Numbered from the stretch's first letter, positions 31,383 to 51,532 are shown. The stretch: DNA of 64,000 bases from an uncultured delta proteobacterium (GCA_963746605.1 CAVVCH010000051.1:6136-70135); one strand, 5' to 3'. The notes: a model not told the origin generated them from the letters alone. Numbers and translations are program-made.

Positions 31383-31526
31383 AAAAACCAATATCCCCTG
31401 GTAACCCCAACCCTCTCCGACGGGGGGAGGGTTGAGGCACCAGGGAACGGATCGAATAGCTGATTTTTTCCAGTGAATGGACAGGACTAAAGGTCACCCG
31501 ATCCTGTCCGGAAGATGGAATGGGAC

Positions 31527-32546
31527 CTATCCGGCCTTGAAGTAGTCGTCCCGGGCCTTCTTGATCTGACGAATATTTTCCAAAGGCGAACGGGGGGCGA
31601 TGCCGCAACCGGGGCAGAGAAAGTCGGTGCCGTTTTCCAGAGCGGCGATGGCTTCCCGGTAGACTTCTTCCGGAGTGCCGCTGAAGAGGGTCGTGGCCGT
31701 GGCCACGTTGCCGAAGATCCGGACGCCCTTCTGGTGGGCGATTTCCGCGGCCCGTTTCATGTCCGCTTTTTCCTCGATGCTGAGGCCGGCGGCACCGGTC
31801 TGACACATCAGTTCGATGATCGAATCCGTATTGGCGCAGACGTGCAGGACCACCGGGCCTTTGATTTGGCTGATGATCTCCTTTTCCAGCGGCAGAACGA
31901 GTTTTTCATAGAGGCGAGGACTCAGCAGGGCCGGACCGGAGGTCGGTTCGGCGAAAACGTAAAAATCCGCCCCGTTGTCAAAGGCGAAATTGGCGGCGGT
32001 GATGGCGGCCTGCGTGGTCACTTCGAAGACCCGGGCTACCAGATCCTGCTTTTTGAAACACCATTTCATGAATTGGTCGGTGCCCACCAGGTTGGCCGCG
32101 GCGGTGAAGGCCCCCTCCGACTCCCCGAAGATGGCCAACCCATCGCCCACCTTGGCCTTAAGCAGCCGGAACTGCTCCTGGTAGACCGGGAAGCGGCCGC
32201 GATTCAAAAAGTCGGCCGGGAATTCCAGGTTGTCCAAGCTGTCGGCGTAGGGATGGGCCTTGATATAGTACTGGCGGTCGATGAGCGGCTCCCCCAACAC
32301 GCACCCCAGCGCATCGCTTAAGGGGGTGATATCCCAGCCCATGGCCTTGACCCATTCGAAGCCACCGTACTGATGGCCGGCGTAGGCCAGTTCGGCCATG
32401 GCCTGCGGATCGGTATCGGCGAGCGGCCGGGCGTATCCGCATTTTTCCATGAAGTCCACCACCCCGTAGGTGGTGGTGCAACCCACCGGGGTCATATCCA
32501 CTTCTTTACCCTGAAGTCGGTTCATTACGCGTTCTTTTAAGGTCAT
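31527..32546 (-). CDS. MtaA/CmuA-family (UroD-like) corrinoid methyltransferase
   Basis: Zn-ligand pattern VVLHVCAN (HxC) and PGCGIAP; EPTSGPALLSP; IFGNV. Confidence 0.85.
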   Translation of the reverse strand: MTLKERVMNRLQGKEVDMTPVGCTTTYGVVDFMEKCGYARPLADTDPQAMAELAYAGHQYGGFEWVKAMGWDITPLSDALGCVLGEPLIDRQYYIKAHPYADSLDNLEFPADFLNRGRFPVYQEQFRLLKAKVGDGLAIFGESEGAFTAAANLVGTDQFMKWCFKKQDLVARVFEVTTQAAITAANFAFDNGADFYVFAEPTSGPALLSPRLYEKLVLPLEKEIISQIKGPVVLHVCANTDSIIELMCQTGAAGLSIEEKADMKRAAEIAHQKGVRIFGNVATATTLFSGTPEEVYREAIAALENGTDFLCPGCGIAPRSPLENIRQIKKARDDYFKAG

Positions 32547-32658: not shown

Positions 32659-33339
32659 TTAAGCTTGACTCTGCAGTTTACGCAGATTGGCGATCATCCG
32701 GATAGCTTCCTGAACGGCATTGCCCGCGGAATCGGCGTATCCGTCGGCGCCGAAGAGCGTCGCCGTATTCTGGGTAACCGGGGCGCCGCCCAGCATGATC
32801 AGCACGCCGGGGTTTTTCTCCTTGATCATCTCGATCGCCTTTCTCATGCCCATCATGGTGGTGGTCATCATGGCGGAGAGAGCGACGATCTCGGAATCGG
32901 TCCGCACCTGCTCCTGGATGAATTTATCCAGCGGCACGTCGCGCCCCAGATCATGAACGGTGAACCCGGCCACCTCGAACATCATTTTGATGATGTTTTT
33001 GCCGATGTCATGGACGTCGCCCTCCACGGTCCCGATGACCACCTGACCCTTGACCTTGTCGCTCAGGTCCTCCATACGGATGTGGGGTTTCAAGATATCC
33101 AGTCCGGCGTAAAGGGCGTCGGCGGCCAGCAGGAGTTCCGGCACAAAATATTCCTGGCTGTCATAAAGGGCGCCCACCCGTTCCATGCCGGCGGCCACCC
33201 CGTTCATGACCGCGTCGTAGGCGTTGAACCCTTCTTCCAGGGCCTTTTGGGCGGCTTCCACCACCTTCTCTTCGTCCAGTTCCACTACGCCGTCGTGCAG
33301 TTGTTTTAAGAGTTCTTTTCTCCGTTCTTCTCGATCCAT
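32659..33339 (-). CDS. Methyltransferase cognate corrinoid protein (MtaC/MttC-like)
   Basis: B12-binding_2 cap (GMERVGALYDSQEYFVPELL) plus EGDVHDIGKNI (DxHxxG), LSAMMTTT and GGAPV. Confidence 0.9.
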   Translation of the reverse strand: MDREERRKELLKQLHDGVVELDEEKVVEAAQKALEEGFNAYDAVMNGVAAGMERVGALYDSQEYFVPELLLAADALYAGLDILKPHIRMEDLSDKVKGQVVIGTVEGDVHDIGKNIIKMMFEVAGFTVHDLGRDVPLDKFIQEQVRTDSEIVALSAMMTTTMMGMRKAIEMIKEKNPGVLIMLGGAPVTQNTATLFGADGYADSAGNAVQEAIRMIANLRKLQSQA

Positions 33340-33364
33340 AGGAACCATCCTCCAGTAGTTATTT

Positions 33365-34145
33365 CTATTTTCCAATTTGAGATTTATAAAACGCTTCGGT
33401 TGTAAGGGGAGGGCCTTCCTCCGGCACACAACAGCCCAAGGGTTTTAGAAGGGTTTGCCGATCCACGATCTTTCCGGTCTGCGTGTCCACAAAAATGGCC
33501 CAGCCCGCTTCCGGGGAGGCCGGGTGCAAGGCCTCCCGGGGAGGAAAGAAGTTGAAGACATAAACCAGATAATACCGCGGAGGGGCGGTCTTTCGATCCG
33601 GATAAATAATAAGATTTTCGGTCAGGAGTTTATAGCGCTGCTTATGAAAACCGTCTATCGACCGGATCGAAGTTTGAAGGGCCTGTTCCCGGTCGACCTT
33701 CAGGGAGGCCGGGACTTGGATATTCGGGTAAATTACCGATCCGGTGGAGAAGATACGTCCCATGACGATCCAGACTGAAGCCGAGGGAGGATCCGTAAAC
33801 GATAAAGTCCCCGGCGGTTTGCCAGTAGCTGACAAACCAGAGGCCGCCTATTTTTTCGGCCGATTTCAACCTGATTTGCTGCGGGGTGAGCGGCAACAAA
33901 GGACGTAATCGTTCGATGACCATCGGGCCGCTTTGGAAAACCCGGGAACGGGTTTGAGCCCCTTTCAAGGTGACGATCGGGCGGTCGATCCCCCGGATAA
34001 TAACCGGGCTTTGGGTCAGGGGGTCCCGGTTAACTTGAAAATCCTGGCCTTTTAGCCGAATGACTTCAAAATCCCCCGCCGGCAGGCGGCTTGCCAGAAA
34101 GAGGGCCAGCCCGGCGGCAATCCAGTGTGATCTTTTTTTGATAAC
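33365..34145 (-). pseudogene. Exported protein resembling an FTP/PepSY peptidase propeptide, frameshifted as given (near 33765); start uncertain
   Basis: Signal-like HWIAAGLALFLA; VSYWQTAGDFIVYGS and C-terminal YYLVY..GWAIFVDTQTGKIV PepSY-like motif; no HExxH catalytic domain. Confidence 0.45.
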
Positions 34146-34228
34146 GGCCTTCCCCTTCAGCTCCGGGTTTCCCCAGGCGAGTCCGTTAGGATCTGTAAAC
34201 AAATAACCTTGACAAAGCGACACTACAA

Positions 34229-34382: not shown

Positions 34383-34412
34383 CAGCCAAAAATTTAAGAA
34401 ATTTTTGGCTAG
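34383..34412. repeat. CTAG-anchored palindromic element, copy 3 (reverse orientation)
   Basis: Minus strand CTAGCCAAAAATTTCTTAAATTTTTGGCTG; its TAG is the livF stop codon. Confidence 0.85.
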
Positions 34413-35110
34413 ACTTTGACGCTTAAATAACGGTCCTGGATCTCCGGGGCGGCCTCTAATTCGGCCGGTGTCCCTCGATAGACCACGGAACCTTTCTCCA
34501 TGATATAAATGCGATGACAGATGTCTTTAAGGGTCTTGAGGTTCTGTTCCACCAGGAGGATGGTGGTTCCTTTGGCGTTGATGGCTTTTACGGTCTGGCT
34601 GATGGCCTGAACCAGCAAAGGCATGAGTCCTTCCGTGGGTTCATCCAGGAGGATCAATCGAGGCTTGATGATCAGTGCCCGACCGACGGCCAGCATCTGC
34701 TGTTCCCCTCCGGAAAGGGTGCCGGCCTTCTGTTTGAGCCTTTCTTTCAACCGGGGAAAGTAGTCAAATATTTCCTCCAGTGTTTCCGGATCGATCTGTC
34801 CCTGGACGATGGGGATGCGGAGGTTCTCCATGACCGTCAGCTTGGGAAAAAGATGTCGGCCCTGGGGGACATAGGCAATGCCCCGTCGGGGGATCTGATA
34901 CGCCGGCAGACTGGATAACGTTTCCTGATCAAAACGGATTTCTCCGCTCCTAGGCGGAACCAACCCCATAATCGATTTCAAGGTGGTGGTTTTCCCGACC
35001 CCGTTGCGCCCGGCCAGGCCCACCAGTTCCTTTTCTCGAATCTCCAGGGAGGTGTCGTTCAGGACATGGCTCTTGCCGTAATAACAATTTACTTCATTCA
35101 TGAATAACAT
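34409..35110 (-). CDS. livF: HAAT (branched-chain amino acid type) ABC ATPase
   Basis: GRNGVGKTT, YVPQGRHLFPKLTV, LSGGEQQMLAVGRAL, LLDEPTEGL. Confidence 0.9.
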   Translation of the reverse strand: MLFMNEVNCYYGKSHVLNDTSLEIREKELVGLAGRNGVGKTTTLKSIMGLVPPRSGEIRFDQETLSSLPAYQIPRRGIAYVPQGRHLFPKLTVMENLRIPIVQGQIDPETLEEIFDYFPRLKERLKQKAGTLSGGEQQMLAVGRALIIKPRLILLDEPTEGLMPLLVQAISQTVKAINAKGTTILLVEQNLKTLKDICHRIYIMEKGSVVYRGTPAELEAAPEIQDRYLSVKV

Positions 35111-35112
35111 AC

Positions 35113-35153
35113 TAACCCTCAGCCCGCCTTGGGCGCCCGCGGAGCATGAAAAT
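35113..35153 (-). repeat. ~40-bp dispersed repeat, copy 2
   Basis: Reverse complement ATTTTCATGCTCCGCGGGCGCCCAAGGCGGGCTGAGGGTTA resembles 7771-7810. Confidence 0.7.
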
Positions 35154-35173
35154 ATTCTAATTATTCTTCTTTC

Positions 35174-35283
35174 GTAGGGGAGGGGTTAACCCCCTCCCGA
35201 GCTTGGGAACCAAGGGGCCAAATTTTTTCCAGTTGTGTGATCTATGCCAGGCTGATTGGGGAGGGGATGAACCCCTCCCCTAC
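35174..35283. repeat. GTAG-type REP doublet (inverted pair)
   Basis: GTAGGGGAGGGGTTAACCCCCTCCC ... GGGAGGGGATGAACCCCTCCCCTAC between livG and livF. Confidence 0.8.
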
Positions 35284-35319
35284 GCTGACTCCTTGGCCCT
35301 GTTTTTGTCTATTTTCGTA

Positions 35320-36072
35320 TTACTGGCCCAAATAGACCTTTTTAACCTCTTCGTTATTCCTGATTTCCTCCGGGGAACCTTCCGCCAGGATTTCGCCGTA
35401 GTGAAGAACGGAAATCCGATCGGCCAGTTCCATAACCACTCCCATATCATGTTCCACCAGGATAATGGTCTGACCGGACAGCATGGCCCTCATTTTTTTA
35501 ACCAGGGCCATGGATTCCTGCGTGTTGAGACCGGCCGTCGGCTCGTCGAGCAGGAGGAGGTCCGGATCGGTGCTCAGGGCAATGCCCATCTCCAGGATGC
35601 GCTGCTCTCCGTAGGCCAGTTCGGAGCATATCCATTCGGCTTTGTCCTGAAGTCCGGTAAGCTCCAGCATTTGATGGGTCTTGTCCCCGACGTCCCGCCA
35701 TTTATGGGCCCGGATGAAGGGATTGAAAAATTTTTTTCGTGACTGCACGGCCGCCCAGATATTTTCGAAAACCGTCAATCCGGAAAACAGACTGGTAATC
35801 TGCATGGTCCTGGAAATCCCCTGGTGAGAGATCCGGTCCGGGCTGAAGCGGGTAATCTCCCGGTTTTTAAAATAGATCTTTCCCTGGGAGACCGGGTAGA
35901 TGCCGGTAATCAAATTGAGCAGGGTGGTTTTTCCGGCCCCGTTCGGCCCGATCAAAGCCCGCAACTCTCCTTTTTTTACCGATAGATGGGCATTGTTTAT
36001 AGCCAGAAGACCGCCGAAAGACTTGCTGACCTCTTGTACTGCCAAAATAGATTCCGAAGATGATGGGTTCAC
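35320..36072 (-). CDS. livG: HAAT ABC ATPase
   Basis: GPNGAGKTT, ISRTMQITSLF, LAYGEQRILE, LLDEPTAGL, VEHDMGVV. Confidence 0.9.
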   Translation of the reverse strand: MNPSSSESILAVQEVSKSFGGLLAINNAHLSVKKGELRALIGPNGAGKTTLLNLITGIYPVSQGKIYFKNREITRFSPDRISHQGISRTMQITSLFSGLTVFENIWAAVQSRKKFFNPFIRAHKWRDVGDKTHQMLELTGLQDKAEWICSELAYGEQRILEMGIALSTDPDLLLLDEPTAGLNTQESMALVKKMRAMLSGQTIILVEHDMGVVMELADRISVLHYGEILAEGSPEEIRNNEEVKKVYLGQ

Positions 36073-37023
36073 TTATTTCCCTTTTCTTTGCAGAAGGCCG
36101 ACCAGACCTTTGGGAGCCACCAGAACCATAAAGACCAGTACAATCCCGATCACCAGATCGGTGCCTTCCAGGTAGTTAACTAAATAATGTTCCAGCGACA
36201 TGATGATACCCGTTCCCAAAACCGGGCCAAAAAGGGTCCCCATGCCCCCGACAATGGTATAAACCACCGCATGGCCGGAGATCCCCCAATGCAGGAAATT
36301 GGCGGATGAGTATTTAAGGGTCATCGCGTACAACCCCCCCGCGACGCCGCTCAGGCCGCCGGCGATCACGAAAGCCAGCAGCTTGTAGCGCTGGACATTG
36401 TAGCCGATCAATCGTGCCCGATCCTCATTTTCCCGGATGGCGATAAAGACTTTACCCAGCGGCGACTGCACCATGCGTCTCAATAGAAGGAAACAGAGAG
36501 CTACCACGATCAAGACCAGGAAATAATTGGTCTTGATATTCAGGAAATCGATTTTGATCGGGCCTAGGTCAAGCGGGCTGAAAGGGATGGTCAACCCGTC
36601 GGAGCCTCCGGTCACGGAAGTCCAGGTTTCCCCGATGGTGCTGCCGATCAGGGCAAAGATCAGGGTAATAATGACGAAATGGATCCCGGACAGTTTTACG
36701 GAAAAATAGCCCACAAACCAGGCAAAGAGCATGGGAATAATGATGGCCAGGAGGAAGGCCGACCCGGGTCCCAGGCCCAGTTTTGAAACCGGGATGGCGA
36801 CACAATAAGCCCCCAGGCCGAAAAAGAGGGCTTGCCCAAAACTGAGCAGGCCCGTATAGCCGAAAATGAGGTCAAAGGAAACGGCAAAAAGAACCCAGAC
36901 CAGGACTTCGGTCAGAAAGGTCTGGTAGAAGAGATCCACGAAAAAAGGCACAGCGACCAGGACCGCGATGACTATTGAAAAACCCAAGATAAAACCTGCC
37001 GATTTTGGTTGAGGAGTGGACAC
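36073..37023 (-). CDS. livM: HAAT ABC permease
   Basis: GYTGLLSFGQALFFGLGAY, TGGSDG, SPLGKVFIAIRENE, GGMGTLFGPVLG. Confidence 0.9.
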   Translation of the reverse strand: MSTPQPKSAGFILGFSIVIAVLVAVPFFVDLFYQTFLTEVLVWVLFAVSFDLIFGYTGLLSFGQALFFGLGAYCVAIPVSKLGLGPGSAFLLAIIIPMLFAWFVGYFSVKLSGIHFVIITLIFALIGSTIGETWTSVTGGSDGLTIPFSPLDLGPIKIDFLNIKTNYFLVLIVVALCFLLLRRMVQSPLGKVFIAIRENEDRARLIGYNVQRYKLLAFVIAGGLSGVAGGLYAMTLKYSSANFLHWGISGHAVVYTIVGGMGTLFGPVLGTGIIMSLEHYLVNYLEGTDLVIGIVLVFMVLVAPKGLVGLLQRKGK

Positions 37024-37032
37024 GATCGACCC

Positions 37033-37884
37033 CTATTCTCCGAATAGCCCCTGAGGGCGAAACAATAAGACGATGATCATGAAGGCCAGGGAAAAGACGG
37101 TGGCCATGGCCGGGGGAGCAAATATGGACCCCACTCCCTGGATCAGGGAGATAATAATAGCCGCCAGGACCGATCCCTCCAGATTGCCCATACCCCCCAC
37201 GATGACGATAATGAAGGCCATGATGAGGATCTCCCGACCCATCATAAAATCCACATAAACAATGGGAGCCGCCAGAACTCCGGAGAAGGCCGCCAAGGCT
37301 GAACCGAGCACGAAGGTCCACATATAGACCTGATTAACCGGGATACCCAGGGCCACGGCCATCTCCCGATCTTGAACCACGGCCCGCATCCAGAGCCCGT
37401 ACTTGGTTTTGTTTAAGAAAAACCACAGGGCGATCATGACGGCCAACGAGATCAGGGCGATGACGATCCGCATCAGGGGATACTGCAATTCAAAAAGCTG
37501 AAATCGGGCTTCTATGGGAATGTTGATTCGCCGGGGTGTGCCTCCAAAGGTCATGAAGACTAAATGCTGGACGGCCAGCATAATGCCGAAGGTGCAGATG
37601 ATGGTGGTAATGGGCTTATCCTCGATAGTCCGAAGCAGCCCCCGTTCCATGGCCATCCCCATCGCCCCGACAACAACCGGAGCCAGGATCAGGGCGATCC
37701 AGAAGTTTCCGGTCAGGTCAATAAAGTACCAAGCCACCACGGCCCCCAACATATAAAGGACCCCGTGGGCCATGTTGATAATATGCAGGAGGCCAAAAAT
37801 CATGTTCAAGCCCAGGGCGATCAGGGCCATGATCATTCCCCAAATCACCCCGTTTAAGATCGCTACGGCCAGATTGGAAATCAC
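37033..37884 (-). CDS. livH: HAAT ABC permease
   Basis: ALGLNMIFGLLHIINMAHG, TKYGLWMRAV, IVGGMGNLEG, RPQGLFG; GTG start inferred. Confidence 0.9.
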   Translation of the reverse strand: MISNLAVAILNGVIWGMIMALIALGLNMIFGLLHIINMAHGVLYMLGAVVAWYFIDLTGNFWIALILAPVVVGAMGMAMERGLLRTIEDKPITTIICTFGIMLAVQHLVFMTFGGTPRRINIPIEARFQLFELQYPLMRIVIALISLAVMIALWFFLNKTKYGLWMRAVVQDREMAVALGIPVNQVYMWTFVLGSALAAFSGVLAAPIVYVDFMMGREILIMAFIIVIVGGMGNLEGSVLAAIIISLIQGVGSIFAPPAMATVFSLAFMIIVLLFRPQGLFGE

Positions 37885-38006
37885 GATTCCGTATTCCTCT
37901 TTTTTACAATAAACGTATGATCTGAAACCCCCCCCCAACCCTCCTTGAACCAAAGGGAGAAGCAAGGGGGGGATTTATGAATGATTTAAATTGGAACTAT
38001 TTTTGT

Positions 38007-39329
38007 TTAAAGCTTTCCCCTCAGATCAACGGTCGGCTCATACATCAGTTTTTCCTTGGGGATTCGGGCGATCACCTTCAATTTAAGGTCCGGGGTAACC
38101 TCGGAGATATAATGGTCATGGAAACCCTGGTGGTCTTCCTCCCGCATGACCAGATCTCCTTGGGGCGCCCAGGGGCCGGCCTTGATCTTCATCTTGACCA
38201 CGGCCTTGATGAAATCGGTATTTTTGGAGTTGTCCTTCCAGCCCGTCTGTTCCACGCCCATGTTTGATCATGTACGGCGGCGGTCCACATGGACCACATG
38301 TGGGAGTGGGCGCAGGTTATCTTGGGGTCTTTGGTGTCTTTCCCGTCATTCGTGACCCCTACGGCGCTACGATAGGCCTTTTCATAGGCCTGGAGTTCTT
38401 TGGGAACTTGATCAAAATAGCGCGGTTGATATTCGATATAGTGGGCGCCGGCGGATTCTTTTCCCACCACATCCTGGCCGATGCCCTCGGTGCAGCAGAT
38501 TACGGTATAGCGTTTCATTTTTTTGTGGAGGCCGAGTTCAACGGACTGCCGCATGACGCCCAAAGCGGCGGGATTGAGGAAGGCTGTAAAAAGCACATCG
38601 ATATCGGGATCGATTTTCTGCAGGAAAGGGCACAAAGTCCTTGGTGGTCTGGGGAGCGCGGATCCCTTGGATCTTTGCCGCCGGCCGCCTTGACCCGTTT
38701 CCCGAATTCCTCCTCCAGCGAATGCCCCCAGGCATAGTCGGCCACCACAAAGGCCCAGTTTTTGCCTAGGTTCTTAAAACCCCATTCCCATCCGGCCATG
38801 GCCTGCATCAGGGCGTGGGTATGAATGCGAATATAATGAGGGAACGGCGGCCTTTCCGGTCAGGGCCGAGGCCATGGCTCCGCCTCCGAAATAGGGGATC
38901 TTGTATTGTTCGGCAATGGGAAAGCAGGCCAATTGGATCCCGGAATGGATGGAACCCATGATAAAATCGACCTTATCTTCCAGGACCAATTTTTTGAACA
39001 TCTGGGCCCCATGGGCGGGGTTGAATTTCGTGTCGTAATCGATGAGTTCTACTTTTCGACCGGCAATGCCTCCTTCGGCATTCAGTTTGGCCACGGCGGC
39101 CTTGCCTACCTTGTCCATCCAGTAGCCGTATTCAGTGGCCCCCACCGTCAGTTCCTGAATCATGCCGATCTTGATCGGTTTCTCCGCTCCATAGGTGAAC
39201 GGCGTAAAGACCCAGGAACTGAGGCCCAAGCCGGCTGCTCCGACCGCCGCTGTTTTCAAGAAATTCCGGCGGCTGACCCCTTGTTGTTCCGTAACGGTTT
39301 CGGCTGGCAGCTACTTGTTTGGTTTCCAT
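38007..39329 (-). pseudogene. livK: HAAT ABC substrate-binding protein with Tat signal, frameshifted as given (about 5 indels)
   Basis: SRRNFLKTAA twin-arginine signal; IKIGMIQELT, LNAEGGIAGRKVEL, VADYAWGHS and TKDFVPFLQKI pieces spread over ORFs 39132..39329, 38774..39259, 38515..38808, 38189..38635 and 38007..38261. Confidence 0.8.
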
Positions 39330-39467
39330 ATCCTCTCCTCGTAGCCATCAAAAAAGTTATGGTGAATGAATCAATAGCCCTTTCTTAATAAAAGCCGGTT
39401 AAAAGAAAAAATCACCTCCTTCGATCTTCCGGTCATATCAATAGTTGCCGTAATGAATCCCTTCTGA

Positions 39468-40790
39468 TTATGACTTTTCGGGAAGCGCCTGATCAATCAG
39501 TTCAATCAGATCAATCAGTTTCATGGAGCTGCCCAGGGCCTGAGATCCTTGGTTTAAGTTAAAATGGCAGAAGGGGCAGATGGAGATCATGTGCTCGGCC
39601 CCGGTATCCAGCCCTTCCTGGATACGGAGGGCGGCATTGCGCTGGGCCCAATCCGGGAACCCGGTCATGACCCCGCCGCCGCCGCCGCAGCAGAAGGAAT
39701 TGGCCCGGGTCCGTTCCATTTCCACCAGCTCAATACCGGGGATGGCCTTCAAGAGGTCCCGGGGAATATCATAAAGGCAATCCTCTTCGTTCAGATTGAT
39801 ATAGGCCCCGGGCCAGAGCTGGGAGCCGTCTTCGTCCACCAGGTATTTGGTCAAATGCCGGCCCGCGTGGCAGGGGTCATGGTAGGTGACTTTCATGGGG
39901 AGCGGTTGGGAAAAAGTCAATCGGCCGGCCTGGTGCAGTTCGCTGAGAAACTGCGTCACATGGATGACCCGGATACCCTGCATCAGCTCCTCGTATTCCC
40001 CGGCCAGGGAGTAATCCTTGAGGATGGCCCGGTAGCAGCCGGCACAGGCGGTGACGATCGTCTCGACCCCCCGGGTTTCACGCAGATTTTTGAAGGTCTG
40101 CAGATTGACTTCGGCCACCCGTTTAAAGGCCTCGGCATCGCCCAAACGCATGGCCGTGGAGCCGCAGCAGAGTTCGTTTTCGCCCAGGATGCCGAAATCC
40201 ACTCCCAGTTTCTGAAAGACCGAGGCCGTGGCCTGAGGCAGGACCCGGGCCGGGAGGTTGTAGGCGCCGGTGCACCCCACAAAGTACAAAACCGGAGCCG
40301 GTTCCTTATTGATATCCTTGATGGGCCGTTTTTCTTTCTTGAAGGACCGGGTCCAATCCCAGCGGACCCGCCTGGGGCCCTGGTAGGGATTGTCGTAACT
40401 CTTAAGCGACTGGGCGATGACCTTCTGCTGGGGCAGGGGGCCGGCGCCGGCCTCCACGGCTTTCCGCCGCAGGGCTTCAAAAATTTCCGGGATATGGGGC
40501 TTGTGGTCAAGCTGGCACTGGGTCTGGCAACCGGCGCAGAGGGTGCAGCGGTAAACGGCCTCGGCCAGGTCGTCGTCCCATTCCAGTTCGCCGCTGAGAA
40601 TGCCCCGGGCAAAGGCGATTTTCCCCTTGGAGGCCATAAAACCTTCAAAGCCGAATTCCGTCCCCGAGGGGCAGATTTCCCGGCAGCGGGAGGGGGGGCC
40701 GTATTCGTAGGTTACTTTACAGGTCCCGCAGGCCGTGCAGCGCCAGATGGCGTCTTCCAGTTCTTCCAGCGAAGGGATATTCCAATGCAT
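39468..40790 (-). CDS. (Fe-S)-binding CCG-domain protein (GlcF/HdrD-like)
   Basis: CTACGTC..CREICP and CTLCAGCQTQC ferredoxin motifs; LCCGS, YHDPCHAGR and FCCGGGGG CCG domains. Confidence 0.9.
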   Translation of the reverse strand: MHWNIPSLEELEDAIWRCTACGTCKVTYEYGPPSRCREICPSGTEFGFEGFMASKGKIAFARGILSGELEWDDDLAEAVYRCTLCAGCQTQCQLDHKPHIPEIFEALRRKAVEAGAGPLPQQKVIAQSLKSYDNPYQGPRRVRWDWTRSFKKEKRPIKDINKEPAPVLYFVGCTGAYNLPARVLPQATASVFQKLGVDFGILGENELCCGSTAMRLGDAEAFKRVAEVNLQTFKNLRETRGVETIVTACAGCYRAILKDYSLAGEYEELMQGIRVIHVTQFLSELHQAGRLTFSQPLPMKVTYHDPCHAGRHLTKYLVDEDGSQLWPGAYINLNEEDCLYDIPRDLLKAIPGIELVEMERTRANSFCCGGGGGVMTGFPDWAQRNAALRIQEGLDTGAEHMISICPFCHFNLNQGSQALGSSMKLIDLIELIDQALPEKS

Positions 40791-40805
40791 ACCAACCTCC
40801 AAAAC

Positions 40806-40836
40806 CTAGCCAAAAATATTTTGAAATTTTTGGCTG
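40806..40836. repeat. CTAG-anchored palindromic element, copy 4
   Basis: CTAGCCAAAAATATTTTGAAATTTTTGGCTG, just upstream of the RBS of the GlcF-like gene. Confidence 0.85.
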
Positions 40837-40933
40837 AAATAAAAACACTCATAGATTCAAAGATGCAACGGTCGGGTCTCAGGTCTTACGTCATTGTTAG
40901 AGACAAATTCTAAGAACAATGGATGCCAGAGTC

Positions 40934-42364
40934 TTATATGCCCAGTTTCCCGGGATTCATAATGTCGTTGGGATCCAGGAGTTTTTTCACCTGCCTCAGC
41001 AGGGAAAGATACCCCGGGTGGGCCCGCTGATTGATCTCCCGGGCAAAGTCCACCGGGGGCTTGTAGGGCATGCCGCCGTGATCCAGATCGACCTTGAGAC
41101 ACTCCACGATGGCCTGTCGGGCGTTTTCCGTTTCCTCGGGACTTTTCTTATTGAAGGGAATCATGGCCCGGAGCATACCGTAGTGGACACCCCGGTACAT
41201 GCTCATGCGAACCGAAGGAGAGAGGTTATGCTCGATCAGGATTTTTTTCCAGTCGTTATAGACCGGGGCCCATTTGTTGGCCGGCGTAAAAGTGCCCGGC
41301 CAGGAAATGCCCGCGCCGCCCTGTTTGCAGTAGTTTTTGGTGGAGCCGACAATTTGGCTGGGTAACTGGGTCCGGGCCCGCAAGGCCTCTTCCGGGTATT
41401 GGGTTACCTGAAGGGAGGTCCCCTTTTTCTTCTCCTCCGCGACCACCGTCTCCCAGATTTCTTCCCGGGCTTCCTTTTCCTTTTCGGTGAAGGAGTTGGT
41501 ATTGGCGAAACTGAACCATTCCGGGGCGGAATCGGGTTTGGGTTTGAAGGGATACGGGATGGGCACCTGGGCCAGCCACCAGGAGACGGCCGTCAGGTCG
41601 TCACAGATCTCATAAGTGCTCAGATTCATCATGTAGGAGACCATGTCTTCCACATTCTCGCAGGAGACGGTGAAGACCTTCAAGACCGGCGGAATGGGAT
41701 GAACGGTGATTCCCAGTTTGGTGACCACGCCGGTGCTTCCCAGCCAGCCTTTGAACAGGCCGTCCAGTTGGGGCATCGGCAGCACGCTGTGCCAGGCCTC
41801 GGCGTTGATGGCGCAGGAACCCACCCGCACCAGCTCGCCGGTGGGCAGGACCACTTCCATGCTGGTAATCTCCTGGCTGTTCAAGCCGTAGCGGGCGTTC
41901 AATCCGCCAATCCCGTGGGAAATGGCGCAGGAGGAAACAGAGGCCGAAGGGGGGCCCACCGGCCAGCCGAAACGCAGGTTATGTTTATAGAGAGCGCTGG
42001 CCAACTGGCCATGGGAGACCCCCGGTTCAATCACGGCATAATGGGATTCGGTATCGATTTTGAGAATCTTATTCATCCGTTTCAGATCCAGAATAATGCC
42101 GCCCCGTTCCGGAATGGTCAGACCCCCGATGTTGGTTCCGGCCGTGTAGGGCACCACGGGGATCTTCTCCCGGTTGGCCAGTTTCAGGACCGCCTGAATC
42201 TGCTCCACGGTGGTGGCCATGACCACATAGTCCGGCAGTTTGGGTTGCACGAAGGACATGTCGTAGGAATAAGCATAACGAATGTGTTTGGCCGCGGTGG
42301 CATTCTTGGGGCCCACGATAGAGGCCAACTCATTTAAAACAGCATCTTTGCTGGTGACATGCAT
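40934..42364 (-). CDS. FAD-binding oxidoreductase (GlcD / D-2-hydroxyacid dehydrogenase, VAO/PCMH family)
   Basis: PYTAGTNIGG, LDLKRMNKIL, VIEPGV, TGVVTKL and C-terminal LDPNDIMNPGK. Confidence 0.85.
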   Translation of the reverse strand: MHVTSKDAVLNELASIVGPKNATAAKHIRYAYSYDMSFVQPKLPDYVVMATTVEQIQAVLKLANREKIPVVPYTAGTNIGGLTIPERGGIILDLKRMNKILKIDTESHYAVIEPGVSHGQLASALYKHNLRFGWPVGPPSASVSSCAISHGIGGLNARYGLNSQEITSMEVVLPTGELVRVGSCAINAEAWHSVLPMPQLDGLFKGWLGSTGVVTKLGITVHPIPPVLKVFTVSCENVEDMVSYMMNLSTYEICDDLTAVSWWLAQVPIPYPFKPKPDSAPEWFSFANTNSFTEKEKEAREEIWETVVAEEKKKGTSLQVTQYPEEALRARTQLPSQIVGSTKNYCKQGGAGISWPGTFTPANKWAPVYNDWKKILIEHNLSPSVRMSMYRGVHYGMLRAMIPFNKKSPEETENARQAIVECLKVDLDHGGMPYKPPVDFAREINQRAHPGYLSLLRQVKKLLDPNDIMNPGKLGI

Positions 42365-42484
42365 AAAATCCTCCTTTGTTTCAGGAATGAAGGCTACGTA
42401 AGCGTCTTTACCAGGGCGGACCCCGGATCGCCTTCCGGGCCGGATGCCCAGTCCAGTCACCCGGGTCCGATGAATAAACAAGGA

Positions 42485-44002
42485 CTATTTTCGGCCGATG
42501 GTCCCCTCCCAGGTGCTGACCTTGGTCTCTTTTTTCTCCTCTTCGCCGAACCAGCGGGAGGTGACACATTTGGATTCCGTGTAGAAGGCCACCCCGTCTC
42601 GGCCCATGACATGCAGGTCGCCAAAAAAGGACTGCTTGTGTCCGGAAAAGGGGAAGTAGGAGATGGGCACGGGAATGCCTACATTGACCCCGACCATACC
42701 GGCGTCGGTCCTCCGGGTGAATTCCCTGGCGTAATAGCCGTTTTGAGTAAAGATGGCCGAACCGTTGGCAAAGGGGCTGGCGTTCATGATGGCCAGGCCT
42801 TCTTCGAAATCCTTGACCCGTTTGATACAGGTCACCGGACCGAAAATCTCGGAATCGCCCACGCTCATCCCCGGTTTGACATGATCGAGAAGGGTGGGGC
42901 CGATGAAGTGACCGTTTTCAAACCCGGGGACGACGATGTCCCTTCCGTCGAGAACCAGTTCTGCGCCCTCGGCGACACCCTTGTTGATCCAGTCGATAAC
43001 CGATTTCTTATGCTCCGCGGAGACCACCGGTCCCAGTTCCGTATCAGGATGGTAGGCGCATCCGACCTTGCGCTCCTTGGCGAACTTGATCAGGTAACCC
43101 AGGAATTCGTCGGCGCAGGCTTCTTCCACGCAGAGGACCGGCAAGGCCATGCAGCGCATGCCGGCGCAGCCGAAGGTCGAATTGATGATCCCTAAAGCGG
43201 AGCGCTCCAGTGCGGCATCGCGCATGACCAGGGCGTGGTTTTTGGCCTCGCAGAGGGCTTGAACTCTTTTGCCGTGGGCGGCGGCCGTGGCATAAATATG
43301 GCGGCCCACCGCAGTGGACCCGACGTAAGAAATCCCCCGGACGTCGGGGTGCTTGAGAAGCAGCCCCGCTTCATCGCGGCTGCAGGTCACCAGGTTCACC
43401 ACCCCGGGGGGCATCCCGGCTTGAATGAGCAGCTCCAAAACCCGCACCGCGGTCTGAGGCGTCAAACTGGCCGCCTTGAGGACAAAGGTGTTGCCCATGG
43501 TGATACACAGGGGAATCATCCAGCCGAAGGGGATCATGGACGGGAAGTTGAAGGGAACGATCCCCGCAAAAACGCCGATCGGCTCGCGGTACATGACAGT
43601 ATCGTGCCCGGTGGAAACGTTCATCAGGGCGTCGCCCTGCATGAGCACGGGAGCGGCGCAGGCCAGCTCCACCACCTCGATGCTTTTAAGGACATCCCCC
43701 CGGGCTTCATCCAGGTTTTTGCCTAACTCCATGGAAACCGAAAGAGTCAACTCCTCCAGATGGGCCTCCATAAGCTGACGCAAACGGAACATTAAGTCGG
43801 TTCGCTGTTGCACGGACTTGCTCGACCATTTCGGGAAGGCCGCTTTAGCCGCCGCCACGGCGCTTTCCACTTCGTCAACGGTACAGCAAGGGGCCTCCGC
43901 CATAATCTCTCCCGTGCTGGAATTCGTCACCGGCATACATTTGCCGGTACTGGATTCCCTCCACTCGTTGTTGACACAATACTTTAAATTTTTGACTGCC
44001 AT
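42485..44002 (-). CDS. mmsA: (Methyl)malonate-semialdehyde dehydrogenase, CoA-acylating
   Basis: GIVPFNFPSMIP, SYVGSTAVG, EAKNH, GCAGMRCMA catalytic Cys, VGVNVGIPVP, FSGHKQSFFGDLH..GRDGV. Confidence 0.9.
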   Translation of the reverse strand: MAVKNLKYCVNNEWRESSTGKCMPVTNSSTGEIMAEAPCCTVDEVESAVAAAKAAFPKWSSKSVQQRTDLMFRLRQLMEAHLEELTLSVSMELGKNLDEARGDVLKSIEVVELACAAPVLMQGDALMNVSTGHDTVMYREPIGVFAGIVPFNFPSMIPFGWMIPLCITMGNTFVLKAASLTPQTAVRVLELLIQAGMPPGVVNLVTCSRDEAGLLLKHPDVRGISYVGSTAVGRHIYATAAAHGKRVQALCEAKNHALVMRDAALERSALGIINSTFGCAGMRCMALPVLCVEEACADEFLGYLIKFAKERKVGCAYHPDTELGPVVSAEHKKSVIDWINKGVAEGAELVLDGRDIVVPGFENGHFIGPTLLDHVKPGMSVGDSEIFGPVTCIKRVKDFEEGLAIMNASPFANGSAIFTQNGYYAREFTRRTDAGMVGVNVGIPVPISYFPFSGHKQSFFGDLHVMGRDGVAFYTESKCVTSRWFGEEEKKETKVSTWEGTIGRK

Positions 44003-44042
44003 ATCTTATCCTCCCGCGTGTGGTCTTAGTTATTTTATGGAA

Positions 44043-44966
44043 TTATTTAATCTCTAACGAACGCTTGGTTATGCCGGTCGGGGGTTGGGAAGCCAGATAC
44101 AGCGGACTGGTCCCCACCCGCTTCAAAATAACCCCCCGGTTTTTCATCAGCGGATCTCCCTCGGCTACCACCCGGGCCCCCGGGTTCAGGAGCAGGTGCC
44201 AGTGACTGGAAGACCAGAACTGGGGGAATTCCTGGGGGTCGAAAGGCGCGGTTTTAGTGACCTCAGCCAGATAGTTGCCGACCTCGAGCAGGTCGTTGCC
44301 CATGGCCACCGCGGCGGCCAGAGGATCTTTCTGAATCATGCATTCCAGGATCAGCCGATGGGATTTGCGGACGCCCTGATAGAAATCGACCCCCAGACGC
44401 AATTCGGTCTTCAGGGAGCTGAGTATGTTGTCCACAAAATCGATGATCAGATTGAGCAGGGTATTGTCCACCATCCGGGCCAGGTAACGGTGAAAGCCGA
44501 TTTCTTTGGAGACCTCGTTCTCGCTTTTGGTGACGGTGCGGCCGATGATCTTTTTGAGGTTGAAGATGTCTTTATCCGTACCCCGGGTGGCGGCAATCCC
44601 GGCCACCGTGGGCTCGATGAGGTAGCGGACCATGGTGATTTCTTTGAGGGAGACTTTCTCGAAGCGCAGGAAATTGATCAGGCTGTTCAGGGTGGTCCGC
44701 ATGTCCACGTCGGCCACAAAGGCGCCGCCCGAAGTCCCTTTGCGGATTTCGATCAGGCCCATGGCTTCCAGGACCCGCAGGGCTTCGCGGAGGGTGGCCT
44801 TGCTTACTCCGAACTGGAGGATCAGTTCTTTTTCTGAAGCCACCCGTTCACCGGGTTTCAGTTGGCCGGAAAGGATGGCGTCCCGGATCTGATCGATGAT
44901 CTGGTCCGAGATCTTACGGTTTTTACTGGCCGCCTGGAACAAGGAGGTCCCTTCCTTAACAATCAT
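44043..44966 (-). CDS. GntR/FadR-family transcriptional regulator
   Basis: LKPGERVASEKELILQFGVSKATLREALRVLEAMGLIEIRKG wHTH followed by an FCD domain. Confidence 0.9.
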   Translation of the reverse strand: MIVKEGTSLFQAASKNRKISDQIIDQIRDAILSGQLKPGERVASEKELILQFGVSKATLREALRVLEAMGLIEIRKGTSGGAFVADVDMRTTLNSLINFLRFEKVSLKEITMVRYLIEPTVAGIAATRGTDKDIFNLKKIIGRTVTKSENEVSKEIGFHRYLARMVDNTLLNLIIDFVDNILSSLKTELRLGVDFYQGVRKSHRLILECMIQKDPLAAAVAMGNDLLEVGNYLAEVTKTAPFDPQEFPQFWSSSHWHLLLNPGARVVAEGDPLMKNRGVILKRVGTSPLYLASQPPTGITKRSLEIK

Positions 44967-45186
44967 CTCCCCGCCCTTGATGGGAGGGGTTAGGGGGGTG
45001 GGTGAACAAGGTTAACTAAAATTTTGGCGCTATCTTAGTCAGAGCCTTTGATTGCTGTCAAGTGAAATATTATAATCATTATATTTTTTATACTATTTTT
45101 GTTTGACATTTATAAACCTCCTTATATATAAGATGGAAATCAATCTGTCGGTCAAAAAGACCGCAAACCGGCAAAGGAGATCAGAC

Positions 45187-45537
45187 ATGGGAGTCAAGAT
45201 CGATCCATTGAAATGCACCGCCTGCATGGCCTGCGAAATGGCCTGCGGATATCATCGGGACGACGCCTTCGCGCTGCTCTCGGCCTGCATCGTCACCTAC
45301 CGGACCAAAGAGAAAAAAGATTATTTCGGAGTGCTATTGAAAGAGGAGGAAAGCCTGGTCATCGCCCGGCCGGAAGGGCTGGAGGTAAAAAAGATCGGTG
45401 AGGTCGATGAAAAGTCCAAGGGCGATGCCTCGGCCAAACCCATGCTGCTTCGTGAACCCTGCGACCTCTGCCAGGACCGGGAGAGCGGCCCCTTGTGCCT
45501 GCAGTTCTGTCCGGTGGACGCCATTTACTTAGATTAA
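45187..45537 (+). CDS. 4Fe-4S dicluster ferredoxin-like protein
   Basis: CTACMACEMAC and CDLC..PLCLQFCP. Confidence 0.8.
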   Translation: MGVKIDPLKCTACMACEMACGYHRDDAFALLSACIVTYRTKEKKDYFGVLLKEEESLVIARPEGLEVKKIGEVDEKSKGDASAKPMLLREPCDLCQDRESGPLCLQFCPVDAIYLD

Positions 45538-45549
45538 AGGAGAGCTCCC

Positions 45550-46857
45550 ATGGAATATCTTTCATCCAATAAAATAGCCGTTGTGGATTTAGGGAAGGCC
45601 GAGGTCGGGGAAGAAGAACTGGAAGACTCCCTGGTTCAGGAAAAGATCGGCGGGGCCGGAATCACCACCGCCTTATACCGGCGTTTCGAAGCCGAGGATC
45701 CCATCGTGATCGGGACCGGGCTGCTGACCGGCACCCTGGTCCCCGGGTCGGCCCTGGGTCTGGTAACGGCGAAAAGTCCCCTGACCGGTAAGCTCGCCCA
45801 CGCCCCCTTGACGTTATACCTGGGGATGGAGCTGAAGTTTTCAGGGTTTGATTATATCGTCATTAAAGGGACTTCGGCCAAGCCGGTGTACCTCTGGCTT
45901 CATGACGGGATTCTGGATATTCAACCGGCTGATGAAATCTGGGGCCAGGACACCTTGGCGGCCACGGATGCCATCCGACTGACCCTGGGCGATGACCTGA
46001 TCCAGGTCCTGACCATCGGCCCGGCCGGCGAAGCGGGGTCTTCCCTGGCCCAGCTTATCGTCAATTACTGGGGCAGCGGGGACCGCTGGGGGTTCGGCGG
46101 GCTGTTCGGTTCAAAAAAGTTGAAAGGGATCGCCGTCCGAGGCATGGGGCTGCTGGAAATTTCCGACCCGGAGGGATTTATTATCCGCTGCCAGTCCCTG
46201 CTTTCCGAGATTAAGCAAGGCTCCTGGGCCGGGAAAAAAGGCCTCCCGGATATGGCGGCCGCCCTGGGGGAGAATGACGTGGCCGACTGGCTGGGGCCTA
46301 TTATCCACCGCCATAAATCCTGTTTTAACACCCCCTATGCCACCAATACCTTTGTTTATCTGGATGAAGACCCCAGGCTCTATAATGAGCCCGATGGGGC
46401 CGATCCCGGGTTTTTAGTCAACGACCTGTACGGACTGTTGGGCTTTAAAAAGATCGGCCTTTCCGCCGTCGATTCTTGCCGTTTGCTGAAATATTGTGCC
46501 CGGTTGGGCCTCGATCCGGCCGCCGTGGCCGAATTGAGCCTGAAGGCCGGCAACCGGGACTTCGAAAGCATCCGGCAATCTTTACCCGGATTACAGGGAA
46601 CCCTGGAATGTGTGGGGCAATCGCCTTTCAGCCCCTGGACCCCGATGAAACCGATCTTTGCCGATTTCGGAGTAACGGCCGACGAGGCCTGGTGGAGACG
46701 CCGGCAGGCCGTGGCCTATATTTTTGGCATTCACCCGATTTTTGCCCTGATGTCCCCCGAGCTGAGCGAGGACGTTCTGTTGGAACTGGCCGGCCTCGGA
46801 ACGGGGATGGAGTTTACGCCGGAGACGCTGGAACAGGTGATAAACGACCTTGGTTAA
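45550..46857 (+). CDS. Aldehyde:ferredoxin oxidoreductase-like protein, short and degenerate
   Basis: AOR N-terminal domain (AKSPLTG, SGFDYIVIKG, IGPAGE, GSKKLKGIAVRG); only 435 aa; the CxxCxxxC position reads SCFNTPYAT. Confidence 0.75.
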   Translation: MEYLSSNKIAVVDLGKAEVGEEELEDSLVQEKIGGAGITTALYRRFEAEDPIVIGTGLLTGTLVPGSALGLVTAKSPLTGKLAHAPLTLYLGMELKFSGFDYIVIKGTSAKPVYLWLHDGILDIQPADEIWGQDTLAATDAIRLTLGDDLIQVLTIGPAGEAGSSLAQLIVNYWGSGDRWGFGGLFGSKKLKGIAVRGMGLLEISDPEGFIIRCQSLLSEIKQGSWAGKKGLPDMAAALGENDVADWLGPIIHRHKSCFNTPYATNTFVYLDEDPRLYNEPDGADPGFLVNDLYGLLGFKKIGLSAVDSCRLLKYCARLGLDPAAVAELSLKAGNRDFESIRQSLPGLQGTLECVGQSPFSPWTPMKPIFADFGVTADEAWWRRRQAVAYIFGIHPIFALMSPELSEDVLLELAGLGTGMEFTPETLEQVINDLG

Positions 46858-46900
46858 CCGTCCGAGCTATGATTTCTGTCAACAATTAAAAGAGATAGCT

Positions 46901-47054
46901 AAATCCGAATTCGAAGCACGAAATCCGAAACAAATTCGAATAACCGAAATTCAAATGACCGAAACCAGAACCTTTAAGCGCGGGGCATGTTTTGAATTTT
47001 GAAAATTTGATCATTTCGATTTGTTTCGGATTTCGTGCTTCGAGTTTCGAATTT
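46901..47054. repeat. Long inverted repeat of 7-bp units (AAATCCG / TTTCGGA family)
   Basis: AAATCCGAATTCGAAGCACGAAATCCGAAACAAAT...ATTTGTTTCGGATTTCGTGCTTCGAGTTTCGAATTT. Confidence 0.85.
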
Positions 47055-47058
47055 CTTC

Positions 47059-48291
47059 ATGTCTCCCTGGATGATTAGGCGGACTACCATCGTGGGGCCT
47101 CATTTGGAAAACCCTTCGATCGCCATCTACACCGGGCACGGCAGTTCCCATTCCTGGCTTTGGTTCGTCGATATCTTCGAGCGGGCGGGCCTGACGAACC
47201 TGGCCTTTTTCGATGAGAAGGACCTCAAGGCCGGGAAGCTGACCGGGAGTCAGGTCCTGGCCGTCTCCGGGGGGGACACCTTCGCCCTGGCCGAAGGCCT
47301 GGGCCGGGAAGGGGCCGCCGCCTTGGAGGCCTGGGTCCGTGGGGGGGGGCTTTATCTCGGCTCCTGCGCCGGCGCCTACCTTCCTTTGCGCTCTTCCAAA
47401 GAACCGCTGGACCTGTTTAACTTCGTGGAAGCCAAAATAAGCAACCTGACCGCCATCCTGCCCACCCCTCAAAAATTCAAAGAAAAGTTCAGCCAGCCTT
47501 ACGGCTGTTCCTTCATCTATCACCCGGTCCGGGAGGCAGTCCGCATCTCCGGCTATGGCCATCCCCCGTTTTCCGGGACAGACGACTTCCCGGTACCCCT
47601 GTACGGAGGCCCGGCCATGATCCCCCGGGGGGAGGTCGAAACCCTGGCCTGGTACAGCGGCTTTACCGAAAAAACGGTCTTTCTGATGGATCCGGAATTG
47701 GCCCGGGAAACCCTGATCGGGAAGTCGGCGGTGATTCGAAAAAGGCTGGGCGCAGGCTCCTTCTATTTGTTCGGCCCCCACCTGGAACATCCCCATTATC
47801 GGAAGGCCAACCAACTGGTCATCGATACGATCCGGTTTGAAAAGAAACCGGACCAAGGGCTGAGGGATTCCGAGTGTGAAAGGGAAGTGATCCTGGATAA
47901 CCGGCGGATCGGGGAATGGCTCCGGGCCCTCAAACGGGAATTGAGCAACGCCCGGATTGTGGTGGCCGGCATCGAAAATGAACCGATTTTCTGGCAAATC
48001 GGTCGCAAGACTTACGAACCCCTCAAAATGCGGGTCTTTCTGGAGGCCCTCTGGAAACGCCTGCCTACGATGGAAAAAGCCGGTCCACTGGTTATTCCCG
48101 GCCGGTGTCGGGGTCTGATCGAAAAGGCCGAGGACCTGACCGGGAAGGTGCGGCGCCTGAAAAATCGATTCGATCGGAAACAGGAGACCGCCCCGCTGGC
48201 GGAAGAGATTTTTACTCTTTTAAAAAGATTGGCTCCGGATTTTCTCACGGTTTATTTTAGCACGAATAAGGCCGTCGGCCATGCGCTGTAA
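47059..48291 (+). CDS. BPL_N-like (class I glutamine-amidotransferase fold) protein with helical C-terminal extension
   Basis: IAIYTGHG, LAVSGGD, GGGLYLGSCAGAY, YGGP and FGPHLEH motifs; start uncertain. Confidence 0.7.
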   Translation: MSPWMIRRTTIVGPHLENPSIAIYTGHGSSHSWLWFVDIFERAGLTNLAFFDEKDLKAGKLTGSQVLAVSGGDTFALAEGLGREGAAALEAWVRGGGLYLGSCAGAYLPLRSSKEPLDLFNFVEAKISNLTAILPTPQKFKEKFSQPYGCSFIYHPVREAVRISGYGHPPFSGTDDFPVPLYGGPAMIPRGEVETLAWYSGFTEKTVFLMDPELARETLIGKSAVIRKRLGAGSFYLFGPHLEHPHYRKANQLVIDTIRFEKKPDQGLRDSECEREVILDNRRIGEWLRALKRELSNARIVVAGIENEPIFWQIGRKTYEPLKMRVFLEALWKRLPTMEKAGPLVIPGRCRGLIEKAEDLTGKVRRLKNRFDRKQETAPLAEEIFTLLKRLAPDFLTVYFSTNKAVGHAL

Positions 48292-49851: not shown

Positions 49852-49853
49852 CC

Positions 49854-51416: not shown

Positions 51417-51532
51417 TTTTTTTTACCGCAGACTCACACGGACAAAGATAGGACCAAAGGCGAATTCCCACCGTACAGCTTGGTCGGTGGCCATAATGAG
51501 CTTTTCTTTATCGTTTGTTGTTAGGTGATATA

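Follow-up and report, generated by a model that had tools for sequence, protein, structure and literature searches.

A flavoprotein/Fe-S pair beside (methyl)malonate-semialdehyde dehydrogenase: a candidate catabolic island for C3-substituted propionates in an uncultured delta proteobacterium and its relatives

What is the function of a string of nine co-oriented genes in which a flavoprotein and an iron-sulfur (Fe-S) protein stand between a (methyl)malonate-semialdehyde dehydrogenase (MSDH) and a five-component importer? The string lies in a 64,000-nucleotide stretch of an uncultured delta proteobacterium of the sulfate-reducer type (CAVVCH010000051.1:6136-70135 of GCA_963746605.1), which is referred to as the window and whose positions are used throughout. 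The original prediction for this locus was that 3-hydroxyisobutyrate or 3-hydroxypropionate is imported, oxidized by a GlcD/GlcF-like flavin/Fe-S enzyme instead of the NAD-linked MmsB and then converted by MmsA. The nine genes are found on the minus strand at 34409-44966, precisely where they had been placed, and are as follows, starting with the first gene of the string:

44043-44966, minus strand: GntR/FCD regulator, first gene of the string (PF00392 and PF07729)
42485-44002, minus strand: CoA-acylating (methyl)malonate-semialdehyde dehydrogenase of the MSDH family, branch A (TIGR01722)
40934-42364, minus strand: flavoprotein of the vanillyl-alcohol oxidase/p-cresol methylhydroxylase (VAO/PCMH) superfamily, 476 amino acids, FAD_binding_4 (PF01565; PF02913 weak)
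39468-40802, minus strand: soluble Fe-S partner with Fer4_8 and two CCG domains, HdrD/TfrB-like (PF13183 and two PF02754)
38007-39329, minus strand: HAAT binding protein, predicted to be exported by the twin-arginine translocation (Tat) system, frame broken by eight single-base indels (by orthologue comparison)
37033-37965, minus strand: livH-like permease (PF02653)
36073-37023, minus strand: livM-like permease (PF02653)
35320-36072, minus strand: livG-like ATPase (PF00005)
34409-35110, minus strand: livF-like ATPase (PF00005)

Our answer, which we put at slightly better than even, is that this string forms the core of a conserved catabolic island, which would take a C3-substituted propionate through (methyl)malonate semialdehyde to an acyl-CoA. 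The gene identities, the conserved gene set, the lost 2-hydroxyacid motifs and the signature of the MSDH family are observed; the kind of substrate, the path of the electrons and the control of the genes are inferred in this general scheme, as follows. A small carboxylate with a heteroatom on C3, X-CH2-CH(R)-COO-, would be imported via the Tat-exported binding protein and the ATP-binding cassette (ABC) transporter, whose place would be taken by a polytopic membrane protein in some relatives. The PCMH-like flavoprotein would then take two electrons at C3, and these would pass to the soluble, two-CCG Fe-S partner and from there to a divergently encoded membrane cytochrome/CCG module. From the malonate or methylmalonate semialdehyde so formed, the adjacent MSDH would produce acetyl- or propionyl-CoA, CO2 and NADH, with the GntR/FCD regulator controlling the two divergent promoters.

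The flavoprotein, whose open reading frame extends to a TTG at 42481 and whose homologues begin at the ATG at 42364, matches PF01565 with an E-value of 5.5e-31 and PF02913 (FAD-oxidase_C) only weakly (E 2.8e-10). With the glcD equivalog TIGR00387, it reaches 124 bits where 567.9 are required, and this match is confined to the N-terminal half. Among solved structures, the best and sole full-length match is PchF of p-cresol methylhydroxylase (1DII/1WVE; E 6.5e-37, residues 42-476), and the structures of D-lactate dehydrogenase and glycolate oxidase align with the flavoprotein over the domain that binds flavin adenine dinucleotide (FAD) only. The fold was considered as an arbiter between phenol oxidase and D-lactate dehydrogenase and was set aside, as Foldseek places the AlphaFold model of the flavoprotein (pLDDT 74.6) alike with phenol oxidases of the VAO/EUGO 4-phenol oxidase type and with mouse D-lactate dehydrogenase (LDHD), at TM-scores of 0.75-0.79 for each.

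Motifs were compared in an alignment of 22 flavoprotein homologues, including ten at 26-32% identity (L047, L058, L060, L061, L065, L066, L069, L072, L075 and L084). The GHAGDGNLH-type and GEHGIG-type motifs, which we take to be metal ligands in the metal and substrate site of D-2-hydroxyacid dehydrogenases, are kept with minor variants in all ten of these distant homologues (Syntrophorhabdus, Geobacter, Dehalococcoidia and others), and a paralogue from the same genome (L086) keeps GHAGDGNLH. At the corresponding positions, the window clade, including the 62% identical protein of Methanofastidiosum, has RGVHYGMLRAM and PYKPP. Because both motifs are gone, though homologues at 26-32% identity keep them, the flavoprotein does not appear to be an ordinary 2-hydroxyacid enzyme. 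The clade also has an insertion of its own, KNY(C/S)K, in which the clade-invariant Tyr345 aligns, in alignment only, with the FAD-linking Tyr384 of PchF. In addition, Tyr434/Lys435 align with Tyr473/Arg474 of PchF and Tyr95 of PchF falls in a gap, so that the phenolate triad is incomplete.

The partner protein is built from two ferredoxin-type cluster motifs and two complete CCG domains. Its CCG motifs, at residues 212 and 371, are both followed by a CxxC, and it has no transmembrane segments. The GlcF equivalog NF008434 gives 46.8 bits against a cut-off of 333, and the best NCBIfam match is TfrB, also below its cut-off (173 against 385 bits). The layout resembles that of GlcDEF and of the FAD/CCG D-lactate dehydrogenases of sulfate reducers, which likewise consist of an FAD_binding_4 flavoprotein with a ferredoxin-cluster/two-CCG protein and in which the electrons probably go to a membrane quinone/cytochrome pool. 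In contrast to these, the equivalog scores are far under the cut-offs and the two motifs are not found in the window clade. The GlcD/GlcF-like label of the original prediction therefore holds at the level of the superfamily and fails below it: by its alignments, the flavoprotein is best described as a separate clade of the VAO/PCMH superfamily rather than a GlcD, one in which the 2-hydroxyacid signature has disappeared and an HdrD-like partner has been acquired.

A 36% identical flavoprotein, likewise without the GDGN motif, is encoded at L079:9971-14269 alongside a CCG protein and another FAD_binding_4 protein; a thiolase/enoyl-CoA hydratase/acyl-CoA dehydrogenase cluster with its own HAAT transporter surrounds it. 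This locus was considered as a guide to the window clade and was discarded, as its beta-oxidation context is uninformative and it appears to be a different, uncharacterized system.

How constant is the company that the flavoprotein keeps? Here, 85 flavoprotein loci were compared with every window gene, and the counts are of non-redundant loci with enough flank in which the flavoprotein is at least 79% identical. Homologues at 79-96% identity are very many and come from uncultured Desulfobacterota, with a few labelled Acidobacteriota, Thermoleophilia and Actinomycetes (Actinomycetota). The CCG partner adjoins the flavoprotein in 30/31 loci, a GntR orthologue is present in 25/27, and in 22/27 an aldehyde dehydrogenase of the MSDH family is found no more than 10 kb away, mostly 26-130 bp upstream. 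Conservation of mmsA next to this flavoprotein clade was the check that the original prediction had named, and the association is borne out, with two MSDH branches found in the same slot. At or below ~46% identity of the flavoprotein, the CCG partner alone is retained. A 62% identical flavoprotein/CCG pair is found in Candidatus Methanofastidiosum (L040:8050-14480), where it lies between a divergent RACo-type corrinoid activator and a pyridoxal phosphate (PLP) enzyme of Cys/Met metabolism.

The window MSDH scores 552.5 bits with TIGR01722 (cut-off 448.5) and is matched by the Bacillus subtilis enzyme (1T90) with an E-value of 6e-134. Where this type is missing, a second branch, B, fills the same slot or lies within 10 kb; its members are ~40% identical to the window protein, and those of L001, L021 and L041 pass TIGR01722 at 503-517 bits. 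The catalytic pair Arg283-Cys284 (GMRCMA) is invariant in both branches. Branch A has Lys106 in all sequences where B. subtilis has Arg106/107, presumably the second carboxylate-binding arginine, and Glu252 ('EAKNH') where canonical enzymes have Gly; an arginine is present in branch B and in the second MSDH of the genome. That second MSDH-family gene (G000:C45:58237-59661; L090:4220-5680) has the canonical Arg and GGAKNH, and its 452.7 bits are just over the cut-off. The alternation of the two branches beside the flavoprotein is a case of non-orthologous replacement within one family.

A reciprocal search was made with the branch-A MSDH against metagenome contigs, from which the 80 closest loci (67-97% identity) were taken; the Lys/Glu signature is present in nearly all of them. 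Among the flavoprotein-free loci of at least 8 kb (n=43), a class-III aminotransferase is found in 11 and an Fe-alcohol dehydrogenase in 3. Neither was seen in any of 42 flavoprotein loci or in the window. A class-III aminotransferase with an MSDH is the textbook pair for beta-alanine or 3-aminoisobutyrate. Because the aminotransferase and the Fe-alcohol dehydrogenase occur beside the same MSDH branch and never with the flavoprotein, the flavoprotein/CCG pair may itself be the maker of (methyl)malonate semialdehyde. Gene order thus fits a pair that occupies the place held elsewhere by a semialdehyde-forming enzyme, and this swap is the strongest support for the general logic of the original prediction. 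As to a flavin/Fe-S enzyme in place of NAD-linked MmsB, the position of the step agrees with the neighbors of MSDH in the reciprocal search and the substrate is not singled out by them. Relative to the canonical beta-alanine/valine pairs, in which an omega-aminotransferase or MmsB is combined with an MSDH of the MmsA/IolA type, the MSDH is of the same family and bears the same signature; the differences are that the semialdehyde former would be a flavin/Fe-S dehydrogenase and that the MSDH has Lys106 and the Glu of 'EAKNH'.

The importer that had been predicted, with a Tat-exported binding protein, is present with all five components. The Tat signal is represented by SRRNFLK in the window protein, and the orthologue scores above the TIGR01409 cut-off. 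The transporter is under every equivalog cut-off for leucine/isoleucine/valine (LIV) and for urea: LivH scores 88 bits against 379, LivG 216 against 362, LivF 192 against 441 and the binding protein 60 against 477. The closest curated models of the ABC components are UrtB-E. The binding proteins are of two types, A and B, and the nearest relatives of both are the benzoate-derivative (carboxylate) binders of R. palustris, not LIV or urea binders, a weak likeness at E-values around 1e-21. A HAAT transporter is near the flavoprotein in 19/26 loci, and a transporter of some kind always adjoins, being HAAT type A, HAAT type B or a protein with 8-11 transmembrane segments. The latter include genes for 475-484 amino acids without a Pfam match in L001 and L002, for which an MttB-type methyltransferase was considered and dropped; with 8-11 transmembrane-like segments, they are probably transporters.

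The gene for the binding protein can be read only across four frames. Relative to the intact, 438-amino-acid orthologue of a sibling metagenome-assembled genome (MAG; L008:12887-14203), it has gained a single base at seven sites and lost one at another, and these eight indels fall within 1.3 kb with none in the genes that flank it. When the indels are ignored, there are 110 synonymous and 21 non-synonymous differences, 0 stop codons and 95% amino acid identity. The intact flavoprotein gene has a similar pattern (104 synonymous and 17 non-synonymous) and other neighbors are alike. Because this is the pattern of purifying selection, as in the intact neighbors, the broken frame is far likelier to reflect assembly errors than decay; the errors are probably of the long-read type and concentrated in one gene. 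Further frame changes in the window affect an arginase-like gene and a gene for a secreted protein.

The conserved unit is larger than first stated and spans ~30-32 kb. Beyond the nine genes, it includes:

33368-34160, minus strand: secreted protein of ~264 amino acids with an invariant C-terminal KPLGCCVPE; frame change near 33760
32659-33429, minus strand: methyltransferase-cognate corrinoid protein (PF02310 and PF02607; TIGR02370 193 bits against a cut-off of 215)
31527-32546, minus strand: zinc methyltransferase of the MtaA/CmuA family (TIGR01463 253.7 against 235.4; PRK06252 301.7 against 244)
26199-27252, minus strand: divergent gene of arginase fold, ureohydrolase-like; frame change near 27135-27165
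45103-52921, plus strand: divergent operon for a ferredoxin, a truncated protein like the AOR N-terminal domain, a BPL_N-like protein and a membrane module of multihaem cytochrome, cytochrome b, NarI-like and CCG proteins

The methyltransferase is matched by MtaA (4AY7) with an E-value of 7e-73, and its LHVCAN and PGCGIAP align with the His-x-Cys...Cys motifs of MtaA, which we take to be zinc ligands. A URO-D-family gene is present in 21/23 loci, and in 16 of these it is of the window type (at least 60% identity). Type-B loci have an alternative layout, which consists of MtrH, a different MtaA-family gene, a corrinoid protein and RACo. In type-A loci, the secreted KPLGCCVPE protein is always encoded between livF and the corrinoid protein. 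It has no match in Pfam or NCBIfam, and a role as a methyl-to-folate transferase was ruled out, as it is secreted, carries a Cys-Cys motif and matches no family. In L001 and L002, the arginase-like gene is the immediate neighbor of the MtaA-like gene. Its product reaches an E-value of only 2.5e-5 with the best Protein Data Bank entry and 28-39 bits with curated ureohydrolase models (cut-offs 174-229), and no informative relative was found among solved structures. In the divergent operon, which is likely the electron outlet, the ferredoxin, AOR-N-like and BPL_N-like genes are each present in 22-23/23 loci, and the CCG gene in 16/22 at an identity of at least 45%. Look-ups of the BPL_N-like protein and of the flavoprotein in the ESM Atlas returned generic names only.

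Several observations weigh against the general scheme. The association between MSDH and flavoprotein is one-directional, as the flavoprotein is found in only 5/80 of the closest metagenome loci of this MSDH branch. A semialdehyde-forming neighbor is unseen in 29/43 of the flavoprotein-free MSDH loci, which leaves the argument from mutual exclusivity modest. The pair in Methanofastidiosum has no MSDH nearby, the best solved relatives of the flavoprotein act on 4-alkylphenols rather than aliphatic acids, and the arginase-like, AOR-like and BPL_N-like genes are left without explanation. Finally, every close relative that was found is an uncultured MAG, and the support for the scheme comes from genomic and sequence comparison.

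If the general scheme holds, what is X? Each candidate accounts for one accessory gene set, with OH the simplest. A thiol or thioether (X = SH or SCH3), that is, 3-mercaptopropionate or methylmercaptopropionate, is suggested by the linkage to an MtaA-type, zinc-thiolate methyltransferase and a corrinoid protein. Further grounds for it are the MtpA/MtpC precedent, the fact that CCG proteins take part in thiol chemistry and the occurrence of the pair in a methanogen of methylated thiols. By this analogy, SH or SCH3 is a tentative choice for X, and an island that serves as an anaerobic route for 3-mercaptopropionate or methylmercaptopropionate is correspondingly unlikely as it stands. The flavoprotein would abstract a hydride at the carbon beside the sulfur, and hydrolysis would give malonate semialdehyde and H2S or methanethiol. 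FAD-dependent prenylcysteine oxidase abstracts a hydride from a carbon next to sulfur. The MSDH would then yield acetyl-CoA, and the methyltransferase and corrinoid protein would take the S-methyl group, as do MtpA/MtpC. In Methanosarcina acetivorans, MtpA/MtpC is a methylmercaptopropionate:cob(I)alamin methyltransferase, in which MtpA is specific for mercaptopropionate/methylmercaptopropionate (bioRxiv 10.1101/548461). The two systems share an MtaA-family zinc methyltransferase with its cognate corrinoid protein, likened here by family and description; they differ in that the host here is a bacterium without coenzyme M and that the linkage to a flavoprotein and MSDH is new.

A 3-hydroxyacid (X = OH), that is, the import of 3-hydroxyisobutyrate or 3-hydroxypropionate, with the flavin/Fe-S pair doing the work of NAD-linked MmsB before MmsA takes over, is in our estimate equally unlikely. 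All of the support for the general scheme is common to it, and Fe-alcohol dehydrogenases stand at the equivalent position beside the same MSDH branch in 3-4 other loci. In addition, sulfate reducers oxidize lactate, in a reaction of similar redox potential, with FAD/CCG enzymes. The substrates named by the original prediction nevertheless find no backing of their own, as no feature singles out either one and neither the binding protein nor the flavoprotein hints at a hydroxy group. Likewise, the 10-kb flanks that were compared lend no support to the proposed link with the isobutyryl-CoA mutase 15 kb away, which had been taken to fit a branched-C4 lifestyle. Left unexplained are the co-conserved MtaA-type methyltransferase, the corrinoid protein, the arginase-like gene, the divergent redox genes and the Methanofastidiosum pair beside RACo and a Cys/Met PLP enzyme.

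An amine as X is a shade less likely still. Here, beta-alanine or 3-aminoisobutyrate, possibly freed from a guanidino acid by the arginase-like enzyme, would be oxidatively deaminated, and the flavoprotein would replace the omega-aminotransferase. The class-III aminotransferase is indeed the commonest functional neighbor of this MSDH branch elsewhere and is missing from flavoprotein loci, L001, L002 and the window share a linked gene of arginase fold, and the ABC components score best with urea-type models. Set against this are the very divergent arginase-like protein, a binding protein that is no nearer to urea binders than to others, and a methyltransferase and corrinoid protein that are unaccounted for.

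A phenolic substrate is improbable. In that case, the flavoprotein would be a true 4-alkylphenol dehydrogenase for a phenolic acid derived from lignin, the MtaA-like and corrinoid proteins would form an O-demethylase, and the MSDH would serve a later or unrelated step. The full-length match to PchF, the alignments of Tyr345 and Tyr434/Lys435, the nearness of both types of binding protein to benzoate-derivative binders, and the four-part layout of MtaA-family protein, corrinoid protein, MtrH and RACo in type-B loci, which is typical of O-demethylases, would all agree with this. However, identity to PchF is ~20-24%, Tyr95 is lacking and Arg474 is Lys here, Foldseek puts mouse D-lactate dehydrogenase level with phenol oxidases and the likeness to aromatic-acid binders is weak. 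The partner is a CCG Fe-S protein where that of PchF is the cytochrome c PchC, the tightest catabolic neighbor is the MSDH, and the context points to an aliphatic acid rather than a phenol. No phenolic route to an MSDH substrate is known to us.

In methyl-reducing archaea, colocated HdrD/GlcD pairs have been suggested to reduce heterodisulfide (PMC6421429). Those of Methanomethylicia, Bathyarchaeota and Archaeoglobus resemble the pair studied here in the colocation of a flavoprotein with an HdrD-like CCG protein; the proposals for them are heterodisulfide reduction with lactate, and no MSDH is involved (PMC6421429). That the pair is likewise a mere electron-input unit for a thiol/disulfide or quinone acceptor, with the nearness of MSDH due to shared regulation only, agrees with this precedent, with the Methanofastidiosum pair that lacks an MSDH and with the thiol-dependent TfrB as the best curated match of the partner, but is improbable too, as an organic electron donor would still be required, MSDH genes of two branches are repeatedly found in the neighboring slot, and the pair comes with an importer and a regulator of the acid type, as a catabolic operon would.

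A conserved island that converts a C3-substituted propionate thus remains the reading that we favor. Its parts are members of known families. Neither the flavoprotein clade nor its combination with an HdrD-like protein and MSDH nor the entire island has been described in the literature and libraries searched; publications on FAD enzymes of Methanofastidiosum, on methylmercaptopropionate (MMPA) with malonate semialdehyde and on 3-mercaptopropionate with corrinoid proteins contained no description of the island. Identifying the substrate would reveal a new way for anaerobes to reach malonate semialdehyde, by flavin/Fe-S chemistry, and give a function to a ~30-kb island that is common in sediment and soil sulfate reducers. 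It may also bear on the long-standing, putative HdrD/GlcD assignment in methyl-reducing archaea, given the 62% identical copy in a methanogen living on methylated thiols. Were the sulfur-containing candidates correct, thiols or thioethers instead of lactate would be the substrates of the pair in methyl-reducing methanogens, and a thio-propionate substrate would fill a gap in the anoxic cycle of sulfur and dimethylsulfoniopropionate (DMSP).

Some minor features of the locus complete the picture. By pattern match only, a 13-bp, A/T-rich hairpin directly follows livF (34383-34411), and back-to-back, promoter-like hexamers, both with 10/12 matches, are situated in the interval from gntR to the ferredoxin gene (45032-45076); the promoter scan was not above chance, with 11 sites against 9.0 +/- 2.7 expected. 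Adjoining the MtaA-like gene at 30464-31391 on the minus strand, and split over two open reading frames, is a weak Amidohydro_2 match (E 2.4e-5, below cut-off), for which no counterpart was found in related loci at the search threshold. A radical S-adenosylmethionine (radical SAM)/GNAT fusion of NitD/NitE type is followed by an AIR-synthase-like gene at L001:19703-21446, and this radical SAM gene is no more than 10 kb from the flavoprotein in 7/23 loci.

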